Positions 1 to 56,501 of a DNA stretch of 64,000 nt are shown piece after piece (position 1 is the stretch's first letter; each line of letters opens with the position of its first letter). Under the pieces are notes generated by a model that worked only from the letters and a program-made list of their open reading frames with translations, searched no databases and had not been told where the DNA came from. Source of the DNA: Escherichia coli (GTDB lineage: Bacteria > Pseudomonadota > Gammaproteobacteria > Enterobacterales > Enterobacteriaceae); NCBI RefSeq assembly GCF_013315695.1, contig NZ_CP054353.1; one strand, 5' to 3'. The position numbers were made by a program, and so were the translations under genes.

Positions 1-215
1 TGTGACGCTGGCAGGCTCTGCCACGGAATATCCGGTGAAGTACCACCGCTGCGCTTTACGGTGAGTTTTTCGAAGCTCTCCAGCGTCGAGAAGGAGAGAC
101 TGCATTCGGGATTGTTGCACTGGTAGAGCTTCTGCCGGACAGTGCGTGAGTCGTTCGCGGCGCGGCTTGTGCGGGTGCGCGTGCTCGCACCACAAAAAGG
201 ACACGGAAAAGACAT
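1..215 (-). CDS. ogr: Ogr/Delta-family zinc-finger late transcription activator (C-terminal end runs off the window start)
   Basis: Manual minus-strand translation from ATG 215: MSFPCPFCGASTRTRTSRAANDSRTVRQKLYQCNNPECSLSFSTLESFEKLTVKRSGG... The CxxC...CxxxxC layout matches P2 Ogr. GGAGG lies 8 nt upstream. Absent from the ORF track because it is truncated by the window edge. Confidence 0.7.
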   Translation of the reverse strand, partial: MSFPCPFCGASTRTRTSRAANDSRTVRQKLYQCNNPECSLSFSTLESFEKLTVKRSGGTSPDIPWQSLPAS

Positions 216-267
216 GACGGAGACCTCCTTTTTTTCATGAAGGTGAATCTCCGTGATTTTATTCCTG

Positions 268-1383
268 TTATTCCTGTTGCGCTATCCATTCAGGAATTTT
301 TAATTCCAGCTCAAGCCGCGTGGTGAAGCCGCTGTCGTCGATGTTGTGCTCCACCTTCGCCAGTACCCAGTCCTCCGCGTCGATGTCACTCTTGAAACCG
401 GATACCGTGCCGCGCATTTCGGGGTACAGGTCGGGGCGACCGCGTGCCAGCGTGATGGAGAACTCAGCCGCGCCGCGCTGTAGCTGCTGCCATTTTGCCG
501 CCGCTGCACGGCGTGCGGCCTCCTCGTTTTTGAAGGTTTTACGCATGACGTACACATTGCCGTCTGCGCCCTCCATGTAATCCCCCTCGCGGCTGCTGCT
601 TTTCTCCTTTTTTGTTTTTTGGGCAGAACCACGTTTTGTCACGCTGACTTTTTTCTTTTTGCCAAAGTCCAGATCCAGCCAGTAAGCGCGCACCCCCGTG
701 TACGCCTGCCGGTCTGCAATGCGGAAGTGATGGCTGTCACCGCTGCTGCGGGTGATGGCGAATGAGGGCAGCGGCTTTCCGCTGGCGCTCACCCCCTGTC
801 CGGGCACGATGAAAAGCAGGGCACCGTTTTTGACGGTGGCGATGGCGCCCAGCATGTCCGCCATGCGCGTGAGAAACGAGATGTCACTTTCCTCCGTCTG
901 GTCGGCGTGGTCGATTTCCACCTCTGCCAGCGAGGCGCTGATTTGTGCCTTCAGTCCGTAGCGGTACGCGATGGCAGAAACAACCTGTCCCACCGTCACG
1001 TCATGCCAGGACACTTCACGCTTCACGTTGAACTCCTGCCGGAAGTCTGCGCTGCTGGCCGTGATGGTGAGCCTATCCGGTGGTCCCTCATGTGTCACCT
1101 CGTCAACGATGAAGGTTCCCTTGTCTGTCAGCGCCTCACCTTTCCAGCCCAGCGCCAGACCCAGCGTCTGTCCGCGCTTCGGGAGTTGCACTCCGCCGTC
1201 GCAGTCGTCAATCGTGAGGGTTAACTGGTCCGCCTCAAATCCCCGGTTGTCGGTCATCGCCAGCGAGATGACCCGTCGGGTCAGCGCCGCGTTTTCCGTG
1301 CCCTTAACCGTGATGGAAAAATCAGGGATCTTCACGCACTCTGACAGACCGTTCAGGTATCCGCTTACGTCCGCAGGGTTCAT
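268..1383 (-). CDS. gpD: P2 gpD-like tail protein (late control gene D family)
   Basis: ORF track 268..1566. Start moved to the internal ATG (MNPADVSGYLNGLSECVK...) with GGAG upstream. At 371 aa, size and sequence resemble P2 gpD. Followed by ogr as in P2. Confidence 0.8.
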   Translation of the reverse strand: MNPADVSGYLNGLSECVKIPDFSITVKGTENAALTRRVISLAMTDNRGFEADQLTLTIDDCDGGVQLPKRGQTLGLALGWKGEALTDKGTFIVDEVTHEGPPDRLTITASSADFRQEFNVKREVSWHDVTVGQVVSAIAYRYGLKAQISASLAEVEIDHADQTEESDISFLTRMADMLGAIATVKNGALLFIVPGQGVSASGKPLPSFAITRSSGDSHHFRIADRQAYTGVRAYWLDLDFGKKKKVSVTKRGSAQKTKKEKSSSREGDYMEGADGNVYVMRKTFKNEEAARRAAAAKWQQLQRGAAEFSITLARGRPDLYPEMRGTVSGFKSDIDAEDWVLAKVEHNIDDSGFTTRLELELKIPEWIAQQE

Positions 1384-1455
1384 CGCAATTTCTCCGTCTG
1401 TGTCTTCGTCCGGCGAAATACTCCCACGCGCACGGAGGCGCTGTAATCCTGCGTA

Positions 1456-1481
1456 TGTTGTCGGAGAACGGTGAGAACAGG
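1456..1481. promoter_or_regulatory. Candidate late-promoter activator site (dyad) shared by divergent gpD and sheath genes
   Basis: TGTTGTCGGAGAACGGTGAGAACAGG, an imperfect dyad TGTTGTC-N10-GAGAACA. A 23/26 identical copy lies at 20014..20039. It is centred about 78 bp from the sheath ATG and about 85 bp from the D ATG. Confidence 0.5.
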
Positions 1482-1545
1482 CAGCGCGTGAATGCGGGGC
1501 TGTTTTTCGGGAGGATGTCGCCACACAAAACACCAGGAGGTGCTC

Positions 1546-2727
1546 ATGAGTGAAACACGCTTTCACGGTGCACGCGTCAAAGAAAACACCGACCTTGTGA
1601 CCGCGATTAATGACATTGATTCCAGTGTCATCGGTATCGTGGCCACGGCGGACGATGCAGACAGCGACGCGTTCCCGTTAAACAAACCCGTATTGATCAC
1701 CCGCGTGGCGAATGTGCTGGGTAAGGCAGGCACAACAGGCACGCTGTACAAAACGCTCAAGGCGATTTCCGACCAGACCAGCCCGAAGGTTATCGTGGTG
1801 CGTGTGGCTGAAGCCGGAGAGGAAGGTGAGACACAGGATCAGCTTGTCATCGGTGGCTCGCAGGCTGACGGCAGCTACACGGGCATGTATGCCCTGCTGG
1901 TTGCTGAACAGGACGAGAGCATTGGTTACCGCCCGCGCATTCTGGCGGCTCCCGGCCTGGATACCGAAGCAGTCACATCCGCCCTGTGCGTCATTGCGGA
2001 CAAGCTCCGCGCCTTTGTGTACGCCGGATGTAACGGGTGCGACACGATGGCGGAGGCAATCACTTACCGTGCGAAGTTCTCCGCGCGTGAGCTGATGCTG
2101 CTGTGGCCTGACTTCATTGCCTACAACCCGGTGAGCGGAAATAACGAAACATTTCCGGCAGCGGCGTATGCGTGCGGGTTGCGTGCGCGGATTGACAGTG
2201 AACAGGGCTGGCACAAGTCACTGTCCAACGTGGCGCTGAAAAATGTTCTCGGTATGTCGCAGCAGGTGTTCTGGTCGTTGCAGGCCGAAGACAGTGATGC
2301 GAACAACCTGAACAACAAGGAAATCACCACGATTATTCGCCGTAACGGCTTCCGCTTCTGGGGGAACCGTACTGCCGAAACCAGCGACTACATCTTTGAG
2401 GTGTACACGCGCACAGCGCAGATTCTGGCAGATACCATCGCTGAGGCGCAGTTCGAAACCATTGACGAACCGCTGACCCCGGCGAACGTGAAGGACGTGA
2501 TTAGCGCCATCCGCGCAAAACTCAACGCCCTGGTCACCGCCGGGAAACTCATCGGTGCGGAGTGCTGGTATGACGTGCTGGACAACGGCACGACGGATTT
2601 GCGTCAGGGGCGCGTGCGCATCCGCTACAAGTACACGCCAGTGCCGCCGATGGAAGATCTGACGCTGTATCAGACCTTCACGGATGAGTATTTCGACTCC
2701 GCTTTTGCAACGCTGGGAGGTGCGTAA
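1546..2727 (+). CDS. gpFI: Contractile tail sheath protein (P2 FI-like)
   Basis: ORF track 1492..2727. Start set to ATG 1546 (MSETRFHGARV), preceded by AGGAGG. Collinear by eye with P2 FI (FPLNKPVLIT, GWHKSLSNV, RRNGFRFWGNRT, YTRTAQ, YKYTPVPP). Confidence 0.92.
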   Translation: MSETRFHGARVKENTDLVTAINDIDSSVIGIVATADDADSDAFPLNKPVLITRVANVLGKAGTTGTLYKTLKAISDQTSPKVIVVRVAEAGEEGETQDQLVIGGSQADGSYTGMYALLVAEQDESIGYRPRILAAPGLDTEAVTSALCVIADKLRAFVYAGCNGCDTMAEAITYRAKFSARELMLLWPDFIAYNPVSGNNETFPAAAYACGLRARIDSEQGWHKSLSNVALKNVLGMSQQVFWSLQAEDSDANNLNNKEITTIIRRNGFRFWGNRTAETSDYIFEVYTRTAQILADTIAEAQFETIDEPLTPANVKDVISAIRAKLNALVTAGKLIGAECWYDVLDNGTTDLRQGRVRIRYKYTPVPPMEDLTLYQTFTDEYFDSAFATLGGA

Positions 2728-3673: not shown

Positions 3674-3837
3674 TCACGCTGGCGAAGTTCGACAACGTTG
3701 AAGAACTGGTCGCTGATATAGCAGTCGTGTTTAACTGGTCGCCCGGCGAGATATTCTCAATGCCTCTCGTCGAGGTGATGAGCTGGCGTGAGCGGGCGGC
3801 GCAACGTAGCGGAGTCCGCAACAGTGAAATCCCTTGA
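3290..3837 (+). CDS. gpE': Tail assembly chaperone frameshift product (gpE+E'-like, programmed -1 frameshift)
   Basis: Codons AAT TTT TTT GCT at 3617..3628. A -1 slip on the T run 3619..3625 opens a frame with no stop until TGA 3835..3837. The extension ends ...NWSPGEIFSMPLVEVMSWRERAAQRSGVRNSEIP and overlaps the tape-measure start. Confidence 0.75.
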
Positions 3838-7760: not shown

Positions 7761-7771
7761 ATAAAAAAAGA

Positions 7772-7792
7772 GGGAGTGTAAAAAGCACTCCC
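7772..7792 (+). terminator. Stem-loop after gpU (weak intrinsic terminator)
   Basis: GGGAGTG-TAAAAAG-CACTCCC followed by TTATT, 12 nt after the gpU stop. Confidence 0.45.
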
Positions 7793-7884
7793 TTATTGCC
7801 TTCATGGAAAAGAAGCAAATGTTGTCAATACATTCTGACTATATATAAATCGCCCGATGAAGGCAATGGTGATGTTCGGGAAAT

Positions 7885-7907
7885 AAAAAAGCCCTCACAA
7901 AGAGGGC
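7885..7907 (-). terminator. Orphan intrinsic terminator (minus strand)
   Basis: Plus strand reads A6-GCCCTC-ACAAA-GAGGGC, so on the minus strand a hairpin is followed by T6. No intact gene lies upstream of it. Confidence 0.5.
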
Positions 7908-8070
7908 GGCATGCATTGTGTGAAGATTTAATTTTTCTGCTTGCAGGGGGATTATATTGAACGGTATTCATTCAATGCAATATTTTTAATTGTCATTATC
8001 ATTAATGAAAATGTTTCTTGTGTTTTTGTTGCTCTGATTACAATCCCGTTTATTACTGTGTCTTTGCGGC

Positions 8071-8096
8071 AAAAAAAAAGCCCGCACGGGGCGGGC
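8071..8096 (-). terminator. Intrinsic terminator downstream of the tfa pseudogene (minus strand)
   Basis: Plus strand reads A9-GCCCGC-ACGG-GGCGGGC. On the minus strand a GC hairpin is followed by T9, about 45 nt after the pseudogene stop. Confidence 0.65.
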
Positions 8097-8140
8097 AAAG
8101 AATGTTTGCATGTGTAGAACAGTGCGGGATTATAAATATA

Positions 8141-8710
8141 TTATGCGTTCTGAAAAGTCCCCTTTGATGGAGATTCAGGCCATACCAGCGCATTATAACA
8201 ATCTTTATTCATCACGGAAGTGAACGTCAACTGCTGAAGTTCCCTAATATATTCAATCCACGTAGCCAACCTTCCCTTGTCTGCATTGCTGATGGTGCCG
8301 GGCAATAACTCAGATTGCCAGATTCTGATCCTCTCTTTTGCCTCCGGCAGCAGGGGATTTCGTTGTCATTCTGCTTTAGCCTGCCACTTTTCAGGTGGCA
8401 GCACATGACGAACAATATTTTCATCATCAAATATCCAGTTACCTGAGTCATCAGCACGTTGGTTAGCGTTAATATCAGAAGTATTAACAACACTAAAACC
8501 GACATGATTAAGTGTTGATGCCTCTCTGGTAATGGTGACAATAATATTATTTCGTTGTAAATCATTTTGATTTTATCTGGTCGAAAGGTCCCTGCTTCGT
8601 TATGTCAGTTTTATCGCCTTCAGAGGAAACCAGATTACTTTGTGCTTCTTTTTCTAACACATACAGTCCCGGAGTTAATATTGCCTGTTTTATGTTCTTG
8701 AGTGCATCAT
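8141..8710 (-). pseudogene. Tail fibre assembly protein (Tfa/TfaE-like) pseudogene with several 1-nt frameshifts
   Basis: Manual three-frame reading on the minus strand gives MMH / LKNIKQAILTPG...DQIKSK / MIYNE / NNIIVTITREASTLNHVGFSVVNTSDINANQRADDSGNWIFDDENIV...WQAKAE / ...LLPEAKERIRIWQSELLPGTISNADKGRLATWIEYIRELQQLTFTS...VWPESP. The pieces are collinear with remembered e14/Mu-type Tfa proteins. The 112-aa ORF 8227..8565 is only one of these frames. Confidence 0.6.
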
Positions 8711-8770
8711 ATTAATCTCTTACATATTGTATCTGGTGAAATTTATAATTTTCTGAAGCTGCCTGAAAGA

Positions 8771-8898
8771 ATTGAGTTTCCTGCAGGCTTTCAATGGTGT
8801 GATGAGGATATGTGGGAGAAACTCCAGTCTGCTCCTGCAGGGGGGGCTTACTGAACACTATCAAAGACAAATCTTCGTCGTTGATCGCATTCCCTTAA
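8771..8898 (+). pseudogene. Degenerate duplicate of the 3' end of gpU
   Basis: attgagtttcctgcaggctttcaatggtgtgatgaggatatgtgggagaaactccagtctgctcctgcagg... aligns at roughly 80% with gpU 7641..7760 on the same strand. The frame is broken. Confidence 0.7.
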
Positions 8899-8903
8899 CC
8901 TGA

Positions 8904-8938
8904 CGCCACCACCCCACACAGATGACGGGGTGGTGGCG
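8904..8938. terminator. 12-bp GC-rich stem-loop between the convergent tail and fibre gene sets
   Basis: CGCCACCACCCC-(11 nt)-GGGGTGGTGGCG lies between the gpU remnant (+) and orf98 (-). Only weak T tracts flank it. Confidence 0.5.
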
Positions 8939-8943
8939 TGATT

Positions 8944-9240
8944 TCACCAGTAACTAACCAGCAGCCAGAACAACAGGCATATTGCCACTGGTGCAGCAAA
9001 ATCCATCAGGCTTCCGGCATCCCACACGCGCGGATCAAAACCACCCCACCAGGGCATGTTAATTCGTTTCCCTTTCCCGAATTTTTCAATCCAGCGATAT
9101 TCTGCCTGGGTGTGTTCACGCGCAATGAAGAACGAGCAACCGGCTATCGCTCCGTAAACCCAGTTTCCCGTAAGAATGCCAGCCAGTACCTGCGCAGCCA
9201 CGGCACAAAGTGCATGAAGGACAGGCGTTATATCCATCAC
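8944..9240 (-). CDS. Small integral membrane protein, unknown function (three predicted TM segments)
   Basis: ORF track, 98 aa. Hydrophobic stretches at about aa 5-24, 26-40 and 78-97. Last gene of the fibre operon, at the position equivalent to P2 Z/fun. Confidence 0.6.
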   Translation of the reverse strand: MMDITPVLHALCAVAAQVLAGILTGNWVYGAIAGCSFFIAREHTQAEYRWIEKFGKGKRINMPWWGGFDPRVWDAGSLMDFAAPVAICLLFWLLVSYW

Positions 9241-9249
9241 TCCCTCCCT

Positions 9250-9528
9250 TCAGCTCCATTCCCGAAGCGGTGCTTCCAGCTCCACCACATAATCAGAGAA
9301 CACAGAAACATCAAACGTATCATCAAGAATACGAATGTTGACAAAATAACCGTCATTCCGGATACAGACAGGTTCTCCCTCTTCATTTTCCCCTGTTTCT
9401 GTATAGGTGAAACCAATTTCATCGACTAACAGTTTGTTCTGGAGGTCTTCATTTTCCTCCCAGCCAAGAGATGACAGGAGGGCTTTAAACTGCTGTTTGT
9501 CATGAAACTTCAAAGTCAAATCTTTCAT
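9250..9528 (-). CDS. Small acidic protein, unknown function (possible fibre chaperone or accessory)
   Basis: ORF track, 92 aa. Its start overlaps the tail fibre stop by 4 nt, implying translational coupling. Confidence 0.6.
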   Translation of the reverse strand: MKDLTLKFHDKQQFKALLSSLGWEENEDLQNKLLVDEIGFTYTETGENEEGEPVCIRNDGYFVNIRILDDTFDVSVFSDYVVELEAPLREWS

Positions 9529-34305: not shown

Positions 34306-35286
34306 ATGCTGACACTTGCCCGCCAACAACAGCGACAAAATATTCGCTGGTTATTATGCCTGTCAGTTTTGATGCTGCTGGCGCTTCTCTTAAGCCTTTG
34401 CGCCGGTGAACAATGGATCTCGCCAGGTGACTGGTTTACTCCTCGTGGCGAACTGTTCGTCTGGCAAATTCGCCTGCCACGTACGCTGGCTGTATTGCTG
34501 GTTGGTGCGGCGCTGGCTATATCCGGCGCTGTAATGCAGGCGTTGTTCGAAAATCCTCTGGCAGAACCTGGACTACTTGGCGTCTCTAACGGCGCAGGCG
34601 TGGGGCTTATCGCCGCGGTATTGCTTGGGCAAGGGCAACTCCCCAACTGGGCGCTGGGGCTGTGTGCGATTGCTGGCGCGCTTATCATCACTTTAATACT
34701 CTTACGTTTCGCCCGTCGTCATCTTTCGACCAGTCGGTTATTGCTGGCTGGCGTTGCATTAGGGATTATCTGTAGCGCACTAATGACGTGGGCTATCTAC
34801 TTTTCCACCTCTGTTGATTTACGTCAGCTGATGTACTGGATGATGGGCGGTTTTGGCGGCGTAGACTGGCGGCAAAGCTGGCTGATGCTGGCATTGATCC
34901 CCGTGTTGTTGTGGATCTGTTGTCAGTCCAGGCCAATGAATATGTTAGCACTTGGCGAGATCTCGGCGCGGCAACTGGGTTTACCCCTGTGGTTCTGGCG
35001 CAATGTGTTGGTGGCAGCGACCGGCTGGATGGTTGGCGTCAGTGTGGCGCTGGCGGGTGCTATCGGCTTTATTGGTCTGGTGATCCCACATATTCTCCGG
35101 CTGTGTGGTTTAACCGATCATCGCGTATTACTTCCCGGCTGCGCGTTGGCAGGGGCGAGCGCATTGCTGCTGGCCGATATTGTAGCGCGCCTGGCATTAG
35201 CTGCCGCAGAGCTGCCTATTGGCGTGGTCACCGCAACGTTGGGTGCGCCGGTGTTTATCTGGTTATTGTTAAAAGCAGGACGTTAG
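34306..35286 (+). CDS. btuC: Vitamin B12 ABC transporter permease
   Basis: ORF track; recognised E. coli BtuC sequence ([19 protein letters not shown]...). Confidence 0.97.
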
Positions 35287-49451: not shown

Positions 49452-49873
49452 CCTCGCGCATACAGCCGGGCAGTGACGTCATCGTCTGCGCGGAAATGGA
49501 CGAACAGTGGGGCTATGTCGGGGCTAAATCGCGCCAGCGCTGGCTGTTTTACGCGTATGACAGGCTCCGGAAGACGGTTGTTGCGCACGTATTCGGTGAA
49601 CGCACTATGGCGACGCTGGGGCGTCTTATGAGCCTGCTGTCACCCTTTGACGTGGTGATATGGATGACGGATGGCTGGCCGCTGTATGAATCCCGCCTGA
49701 AGGGAAAGCTGCACGTAATCAGCAAGCGATATACGCAGCGAATTGAGCGGCATAACCTGAATCTGAGGCAGCACCTGGCACGGCTGGGACGGAAGTCGCT
49801 GTCGTTCTCAAAATCGGTGGAGCTGCATGACAAAGTCATCGGGCATTATCTGAACATAAAACACTATCAATAA
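49176..49873 (+). CDS. insAB: IS1 InsAB' transposase (-1 frameshift at A6C, 49427..49433)
   Basis: The InsB frame is ORF 49370..49873. The slippery TTAAAAAACTC lies in the insA/insB overlap, as known for IS1. Confidence 0.85.
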
Positions 49874-56079: not shown

Positions 56080-56501
56080 CCTCGCGCATACAGCCGGGCA
56101 GTGACGTCATCGTCTGCGCGGAAATGGACGAACAGTGGGGCTATGTCGGGGCTAAATCGCGCCAGCGCTGGCTGTTTTACGCGTATGACAGGCTCCGGAA
56201 GACGGTTGTTGCGCACGTATTCGGTGAACGCACTATGGCGACGCTGGGGCGTCTTATGAGCCTGCTGTCACCCTTTGACGTGGTGATATGGATGACGGAT
56301 GGCTGGCCGCTGTATGAATCCCGCCTGAAGGGAAAGCTGCACGTAATCAGCAAGCGATATACGCAGCGAATTGAGCGGCATAACCTGAATCTGAGGCAGC
56401 ACCTGGCACGGCTGGGACGGAAGTCGCTGTCGTTCTCAAAATCGGTGGAGCTGCATGACAAAGTCATCGGGCATTATCTGAACATAAAACACTATCAATA
56501 A
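55804..56501 (+). CDS. insAB: IS1 InsAB' transposase (-1 frameshift at A6C, 56055..56061)
   Basis: The InsB frame is ORF 55998..56501. Confidence 0.85.

Follow-up and report, generated by a model that had tools for sequence, protein, structure and literature searches.

Predicted Ogr-type activator sites in two divergent late spacers of a P88-type Escherichia coli prophage

A P88-type prophage with two divergent late spacers

The window, by which we mean the whole 64-kb stretch of DNA analysed here, contains a prophage of the P2 family, P88/Xuanwuvirus type, that sits in an E. coli chromosome. The flanking host genes aroH-ppsR-ppsA match E. coli at 100% identity. Among deposited phages, those of the P88/Xuanwuvirus group come closest, with DNA identities of about 71-77%. 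The best match among complete E. coli genomes was 93%, and the prophage group was matched in 1348 of 5426 such genomes, or about one quarter. The host flank also carries two IS1-like copies at about 49197 and 55825 (+), with identical InsA-type zinc-finger ORFs; the pair gives identical 18-mers at 49545-49562 and 56173-56190, 6.6 kb apart.

Late genes diverge at two places in the prophage, across a spacer of 162 bp between gpD and the sheath gene FI and one of 151 bp between gpO and gpP (Table 1). An earlier note on this DNA had named these four flanking genes, and Pfam returned the same assignments. Compared with P2, the FI-FII-E-T-U block of the window is inverted relative to the operon that runs from O to the tail-fibre genes. 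P88, Citrobacter phage phiSM and PhiR44_2 share the window layout, with gpD divergent from FI and ogr after gpD. The divergent gpD/FI arrangement was present in each of the 30 genome loci with a sheath protein at 64% identity or more to that of the window, and absent from more distant loci, at 50% identity or below.

In P2-like phages, the late (head, tail and lysis) genes are switched on by an Ogr-type protein. A candidate for this activator begins 52 bp downstream of gpD, the place that ogr also takes in P2. Its product scored 51.1 bits against Pfam Ogr_Delta (cutoff 26.3) and is 40% identical to P2 Ogr and 63% identical to the P88 homologue. In the window lineage all four cysteines are present in the pattern C-x2-C-x24-C-x4-C, whereas P2 Ogr has C-x2-C-x22-C-x4-C, so that the window protein carries two extra residues between the cysteine pairs. 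An ORF at 56..289 (-) was considered as ogr and rejected, because it lies in the wrong frame; the true Ogr frame begins at 215.

Table 1. Late genes, predicted activator sites and predicted promoter elements in the window.
Feature	Position	Strand	Sequence or support	Remarks
ogr-like gene	1..215	-	ATG at 215	cut by left window edge
gpD (tail/baseplate hub)	268..1383	-	Pfam Phage_GPD	first gene of predicted gpD-ogr unit
Sheath gene FI	1546..2727	+	Pfam	first gene of FI-FII-E-T-U block (to 7760)
gpO (scaffold/protease)	19079..19948	-	Pfam	first gene of long head-lysis-tail operon
gpP (large terminase)	20100..21842	+	Pfam	followed by portal gene gpQ
Activator site 1 (predicted)	1456..1481	+	TGTTGTCGGAGAACGGTGAGAACAGG	gpD/sheath spacer
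Site 1, core	1457..1478	+	GTTGT-N12-AGAAC	inner TGT 1459-1461; AGA 1474-1476; dyad centre 1467.5
Activator site 2 (predicted)	20014..20039	+	TGTTGTCGGAGAACCGCCAGAACAGG	gpO/gpP spacer
Site 2, core	20015..20036	+		inner TGT 20017-19; AGA 20032-34; dyad centre 20025.5
gpD extended -10 (predicted)	1418..1426	-	TG (1426, 1425), one base, GAGTAT (1423..1418)	
gpD start (predicted)	near 1411	-		leader about 28 nt, carries Shine-Dalgarno
FI -35-region box	1488..1493	+	GTGA(A/G)T (GCGTGA 1486-1491)	weak -35-like, 17 bp upstream of -10
FI -10 (predicted)	1511..1516	+	GAGGAT	start near A1523, 55.5 bp from centre
gpO -10 (predicted)	19981..19976	-	CATCAT	start near 19969
gpO -35-like box	20001-20007 (CGTTGAG)	-	TTGAGC	18 bp upstream of -10
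gpP-gpQ -10 (predicted)	20070..20075	+	TAGCCT	start near 20081-20083

Each of the two spacers has a 26-bp element at its centre. Read directly from the sequence, the two elements sit where the earlier note had placed them and are identical at 23 of 26 positions, the mismatches falling at positions 15, 17 and 18. The distances from the 26-mer centre to the start codons (85.5 bp for gpD, 77.5 bp for FI, 78.5 bp for gpO and 73.5 bp for gpP) agree with the 74-86 bp reported in that note, and so does the number of copies: with as many as 3 mismatches permitted, a degenerate search found these two alone in the 64 kb, and matches in 0 of 100 dinucleotide-preserving shuffles, giving 0 expected by chance.

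The classical activator site of the P2 family is a partial inverted repeat, TGT-N12-ACA. In a pattern search of the window and of P88, exact matches to the core TGTTGT-N12-A(G/C)AA were confined to the two divergent late spacers, with one site per spacer. The loose pattern TGT-N12-ACA, in contrast, gave 10 matches in the window against 15.8 expected and 0 in the late spacers; searched without the GTTGT context, it is useless. No further exact core match, and thus no third, PV-like site, was found anywhere in the window, and genes S and V overlap, so the O operon probably continues into the tail genes.

One near match was seen elsewhere. TGTTGTCAATACATTCTGACTA at 7820-7841 (+) is the core motif with one mismatch, just past the terminator hairpin of gpU (about 7766-7795), in an AT-rich stretch (7800-9500) that corresponds to the P2 cargo hotspot between tail-fibre and tail genes. 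The ORFs nearby, 8227-8565 (-), 8938-9429 (+) and 9250-9528 (-), had no Pfam match. We rejected this match as an activator site on account of the AT-rich DNA and of there being no gene at a suitable distance. A hairpin or terminator role for the 26-mers was likewise rejected: with divergent start codons on either side, they are not where any transcript ends. In the O/P spacer, terminator-like matches were limited to ones that overlap the edges of the 26-mer and have poor T-runs.

Core motif and half-site spacing

We compared the elements with about 45 distinct related spacers, drawing on 44 distinct sheath-upstream and 34 distinct gpP-upstream spacers from IMG/VR, 65 loci from one-genome-per-species sampling, and three deposited phages of other genera. 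The gpD/FI comparison comprised 26 distinct sites, from about 30 Enterobacterales species and IMG/VR contigs; these sequences are linked by phylogeny, and the counts are therefore not counts of independent events. TGTTGT was invariant in all 26. Exactly 12 bp after the inner TGT stood A-(G/C)-A, in which neither A ever varied, and then (A/C)C, and the N12 spacer varied except for one G, at position 16 of the 26-mer, which was kept in 25 of the 26. The same conservation of TGT-N12-A(G/C)A was found in 9 O/P sites of the window lineage. In P88-type prophages TGTTGT-N12-AGAAC occurs at both spacers and nowhere else, with N12 spacers unrelated to those of the window.

These data bear on how far apart the half-sites lie. 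The earlier note had them further apart than in P2, because it counted the outer triplets of TGTTGT and AGAACA; the triplet A(G/C)A conserved at N12 in both sets of sites contradicts this. A wider dyad, TGT-N18-ACA, can indeed be read in both window copies as TGTTGTC-N10-(G/C)AGAACA, and the two extra residues between the cysteine pairs of the Ogr homologue (x24 against x22 in P2) would fit an activator that recognises such an arrangement. The outer ACA (1477-1479), however, is not conserved, being A in 13 and C in 11 sites at its first position, mostly C at the second and variable at the last, and relatives read AGAAGG, AGAACG, AGACCC or AGAATC at the right half. Moreover, the nearest relatives, whose gpP is 99% identical to that of the window, carry TGTTGTCGGAGCGTTGCGACAAAG at their O/P site, a textbook TGT-N12-ACA that reads TGT-N12-ACAAAG. 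The outer and inner readings are concentric, so a wider protein footprint is not required, and a search of the window for TGTTGTC-N11-AGAACA with 2 mismatches gave 4 matches against 1.5 expected, which adds no support. We therefore regard recognition of the wider dyad as highly improbable.

The window elements thus match the classical site of the P2 family, spacing included, and share the P2 centre. The right half in the window is AGA rather than ACA, which leaves the dyad imperfect, with 4 of 5 symmetric positions. Contigs with TGT-N12-ACA at O/P use AGA at their own gpD/FI site, and the presence of both in the same contigs suggests that one activator accepts both forms. For the P88-type lineage the motif can be corrected to TGT-N12-A(G/C)A at P2 spacing, a form that is usable for prophage annotation.

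Five related loci (in Erwinia psidii, Trabulsiella odontotermitis and Symbiopectobacterium) deviate, either in the right half or on the gpD side. Four Erwinia psidii and Symbiopectobacterium prophages have AGG in place of AGA as the right half and keep TGTTGT and both -10 boxes. Either the variation is tolerated, or the AGG may mark the onset of decay in genomes of symbionts.

The identity of the two window copies extends beyond the half-sites into the spacer, CGGAGAAC, and within each copy the conserved (G)AGAAC is preceded, 9 bp upstream, by a second one (1464-1469 against 1473-1478, and 20022-20027 against 20031-20036), which creates a short alternative dyad, GTTGT-N3-AGAAC. This alternative dyad is not conserved: in a relative with a 98% identical sheath protein the internal GAGAAC is broken to GAGAGC. 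We asked whether the 23/26 identity might reflect sequence exchange or shared ancestry rather than function, the half-sites alone being what matters. In P88 the two sites agree at about 13 of 26 positions, essentially the half-sites. Klebsiella phage ST16-OXA48phi5.4, of another genus, also has the spacer CGGAGAAC-GCC at its O/P site, and this suggests that the spacer is of the O/P type, maybe copied into the gpD/FI site in the window clade. On the other hand, several members of that clade carry CGGAG at both sites, and the G at position 16, kept in all but one of the gpD/FI sites, hints that some spacer positions may aid recognition. We give this account roughly even odds as a whole, although for the extra identity itself shared ancestry or exchange is more likely than a functional requirement. 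It concerns the spacer only and is compatible with the elements being Ogr sites.

Predicted promoters on both arms of each site

Late promoters of P2 are usually described without -35 elements. Promoter scans likewise found no consensus sigma-70 promoter in either spacer of the window, only conserved, partial -35-like boxes, GTGAAT and TTGAGC. When hexamers were placed by their distance from the dyad centre, all four arms of the window had a hexamer with A as its second and T as its sixth base (A2/T6) at an offset of 44-50. The predicted -10 boxes are mirrored about the centre, at offsets 44 and 45 in the gpD/FI spacer and 45 and 45 in the O/P spacer, and would put the starts 55.5-57.5 bp from the centre, with the -10s placed as at the mapped promoters of P2 and 186, whose -10 hexamers begin at offset 44 or 45. 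For comparison, centre-to-start distances are 56.5 bp at P2 PV and 56.5-58.5 bp at P2 PF.

Related sequences held the same geometry. On the FI side an A2/T6 hexamer lay at offset 44 in 32 of 32 distinct arms; on the gpD side it lay at offset 44 in 26 arms and at 45 in 5, accounting for all 31 distinct arms, and almost no A2/T6 hexamers were found at other offsets on either side. The gpO arms of the window lineage had CATCAT or GATGAT at offset 45 in 9 of 9 cases. A footprint anchored on the dyad centre, built from 15 non-redundant spacers less than 85% identical to one another, resolved into islands: the TG and A..T of the gpD side, the two dyad halves, GCGTGA (+19..+24) and the FI -10. The gpD side is without a -35-like box and has TG-N before its -10, the conserved positions being the TG, A(-11) and T(-7). 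For P88-type relatives a short gpD leader is predicted, of about 12-14 nt.

Extended -10 promoters can work without a -35 element or an activator. This raises the question of whether the site at 1456-1481 activates the sheath operon alone, as P2 PF does, while an extended -10 that needs no activator, and shares the spacer only by chance, drives gpD and ogr. The conserved TG-N-(G/A)A...T on the gpD side is of this kind, and with ogr downstream of gpD and no terminator between them, activator-independent transcription would be useful to start the switch. An independent gpD promoter would not need fixed spacing, however, and the gpD -10 holds its distance from the dyad (44 or 45) throughout the 31 arms while the intervening DNA diverges freely, in mirror image of the FI side and of the mapped divergent pairs of P2 and 186. 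The hexamers on the gpD side are also weak (GAGTAT, GACCAT, GATCCT). We consider activation of the sheath operon alone unlikely.

We favour, with a probability of about 0.8, the reading in which both 26-mers are binding sites of the prophage's own Ogr-family activator, each midway between divergent late promoters. The earlier note had proposed Ogr-type late promoter sites, and the Ogr_Delta gene together with the position of the elements midway between divergent late genes supports its proposal. What the analysis establishes is the sequence of the elements, their conservation, their geometry and the presence of an activator gene; from these we infer binding, start sites, activator dependence and the history of the inversion. 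Counting against the favoured reading are the imperfect dyad, the extended -10 that might let the gpD promoter work alone, the short gpD leader of P88-type relatives, the five deviating loci and the phylogenetic linkage of the sequences compared. The zinc-finger activator would bind GTTGT-N12-A(G/C)AAC, a partial inverted repeat, flanked at each locus by two back-to-back weak sigma-70 promoters such that the site lies near -55 of both. Bound symmetrically, it could draw RNA polymerase to the promoter on either side by way of the alpha C-terminal domain, and two sites would then govern four late units: gpD(-ogr), FI-U, O to tail fibre, and P-Q. For P2, Ogr is known to bind inverted repeats near -55 of the late promoters and to need contact with the alpha subunit (PMC3152322), and suppressors of rpoA109 have been described in ogr (PMC11434276). 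The outcome is a precise, testable promoter map of two activator sites, four predicted starts and four -10 boxes.

Comparison with P2 and 186, and transcription of ogr

The O/P site of the window is a homologue of the P2 pO/pP and 186 pV/p12 sites. In P2 (NC_001895 3057-3087) it lies between the same gene pair, and one site is annotated for both promoters; its centre, at 3071.5, is 55.5 bp from both mapped starts, 3016 (-) and 3127 (+). In 186 (NC_001317 3798-3817) one annotated B-protein site activates the divergent late promoters pV and p12, with promoter features whose ends lie 55.5 and 56.5 bp from the centre of that site. The P-side -10 of P2 and the p12 -10 of 186 are both TAGCCT, identical to the predicted gpP -10 of the window and at the same offset, whereas the O side of P2 and 186 has GAAACT at offset 44 and the window CATCAT at offset 45. 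P2 and the window have the core GTTGT-N12-NNA in common, and the difference lies in the right half: P2 and 186 read GTTGT-N12-CCA where the window has AGA. Orientation differs as well, since the strong GTTGT half of this asymmetric site faces the gpP homologue in P2 (3061-3080) and 186 (3798-3817) but gpO in the window lineage. In the Stenotrophomonas phage Smp131, the divergent promoters PP' and PO' were placed in opposite directions on one 18-bp TGT-N12-ACA-like site; that assignment was made in silico only, in a phage of a distant host for which no divergent gpD/sheath pair was reported (PMC3931495).

Service of two divergent promoters by one site is thus already known for O and P. The earlier note's proposal of one site for two divergent promoters gains support from geometry and conservation, but the novelty it implied does not hold, as a single site for pO/pP and for pV/p12 already stands in the RefSeq annotation of P2 and 186. 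The gpD/FI site would, to judge from sequence, be a second bidirectional instance, and one specific to the P88-type lineage; in the literature searched we found no description of a bidirectional gpD/FI site, of the tail-block inversion or of P88/Xuanwuvirus late promoters and late-gene regulation.

The natural counterpart of the gpD/FI site is P2 PF (activator site 17555-17583), which also lies upstream of the sheath gene. In both P2 and the window, GTTGT is the half distal to FI and (N)NAAC the proximal half. The PF -10, GAAAAT, stands at offset 45 with a leader of about 25 nt. PF is unidirectional, as it has the cargo gene fun(Z) next to it on the upstream side and gpD as the last gene of its own operon. 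In the window, by contrast, gpD lies divergent across the site with a conserved -10 of its own. The GTTGT half is distal to FI in both phages, which suggests that FI and the site moved as one. The most likely origin of the gpD/FI pair is an inversion, with respect to the P2 order, that took in both the FI-U block and its PF activator site; it would have brought gpD beside the site, after which an extended -10 could have become fixed on the gpD side as a gpD promoter. The earlier note had argued that the shared site would explain how gpD can be expressed; the predicted gpD-side promoter, which conservation supports well, lends weight to this idea.

No terminator was found between gpD and ogr, so late transcription probably reads into ogr; in P2 the F operon and ogr are annotated with a common terminator. 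Because ogr lies downstream of gpD, a gpD-side promoter would close a positive feedback loop on the activator. We lean slightly towards the full scenario for the P88-type lineage, in which inversion put a one-way PF site beside gpD, a new extended -10 arose at the mirror position, two symmetric sites came to drive four promoters, and ogr entered a feedback loop. If true, the P88-type lineage would provide a clear natural case in which a symmetric class I activator site was co-opted, after rearrangement, for use in both directions. The gpD/sheath pair would illustrate that a symmetric site can gain a second promoter when a gene block is inverted, which would add a second case to a known design without establishing a new principle.

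A separate promoter for ogr was also considered. A good -10 hexamer, TAAAAT, lies at 256-261 (-), in the gap that separates the gpD stop (268) from the ogr start (215); its counterpart in P88 is TAGAAT at about 34441-34446, and the annotated ogr promoter of P2 occupies the corresponding position. The promoter scan found neither a consensus -35 nor a consensus promoter in the gpD-ogr gap. Hence ogr may have its own promoter in addition to read-through from gpD. The promoter map concerns a prophage group that is common in E. coli and present in many other Enterobacterales, in which ogr is often unannotated. In the P88 records the ogr homologue (34476-34736) is unannotated, and in the phiSM record the label 'ogr' sits on gpD.
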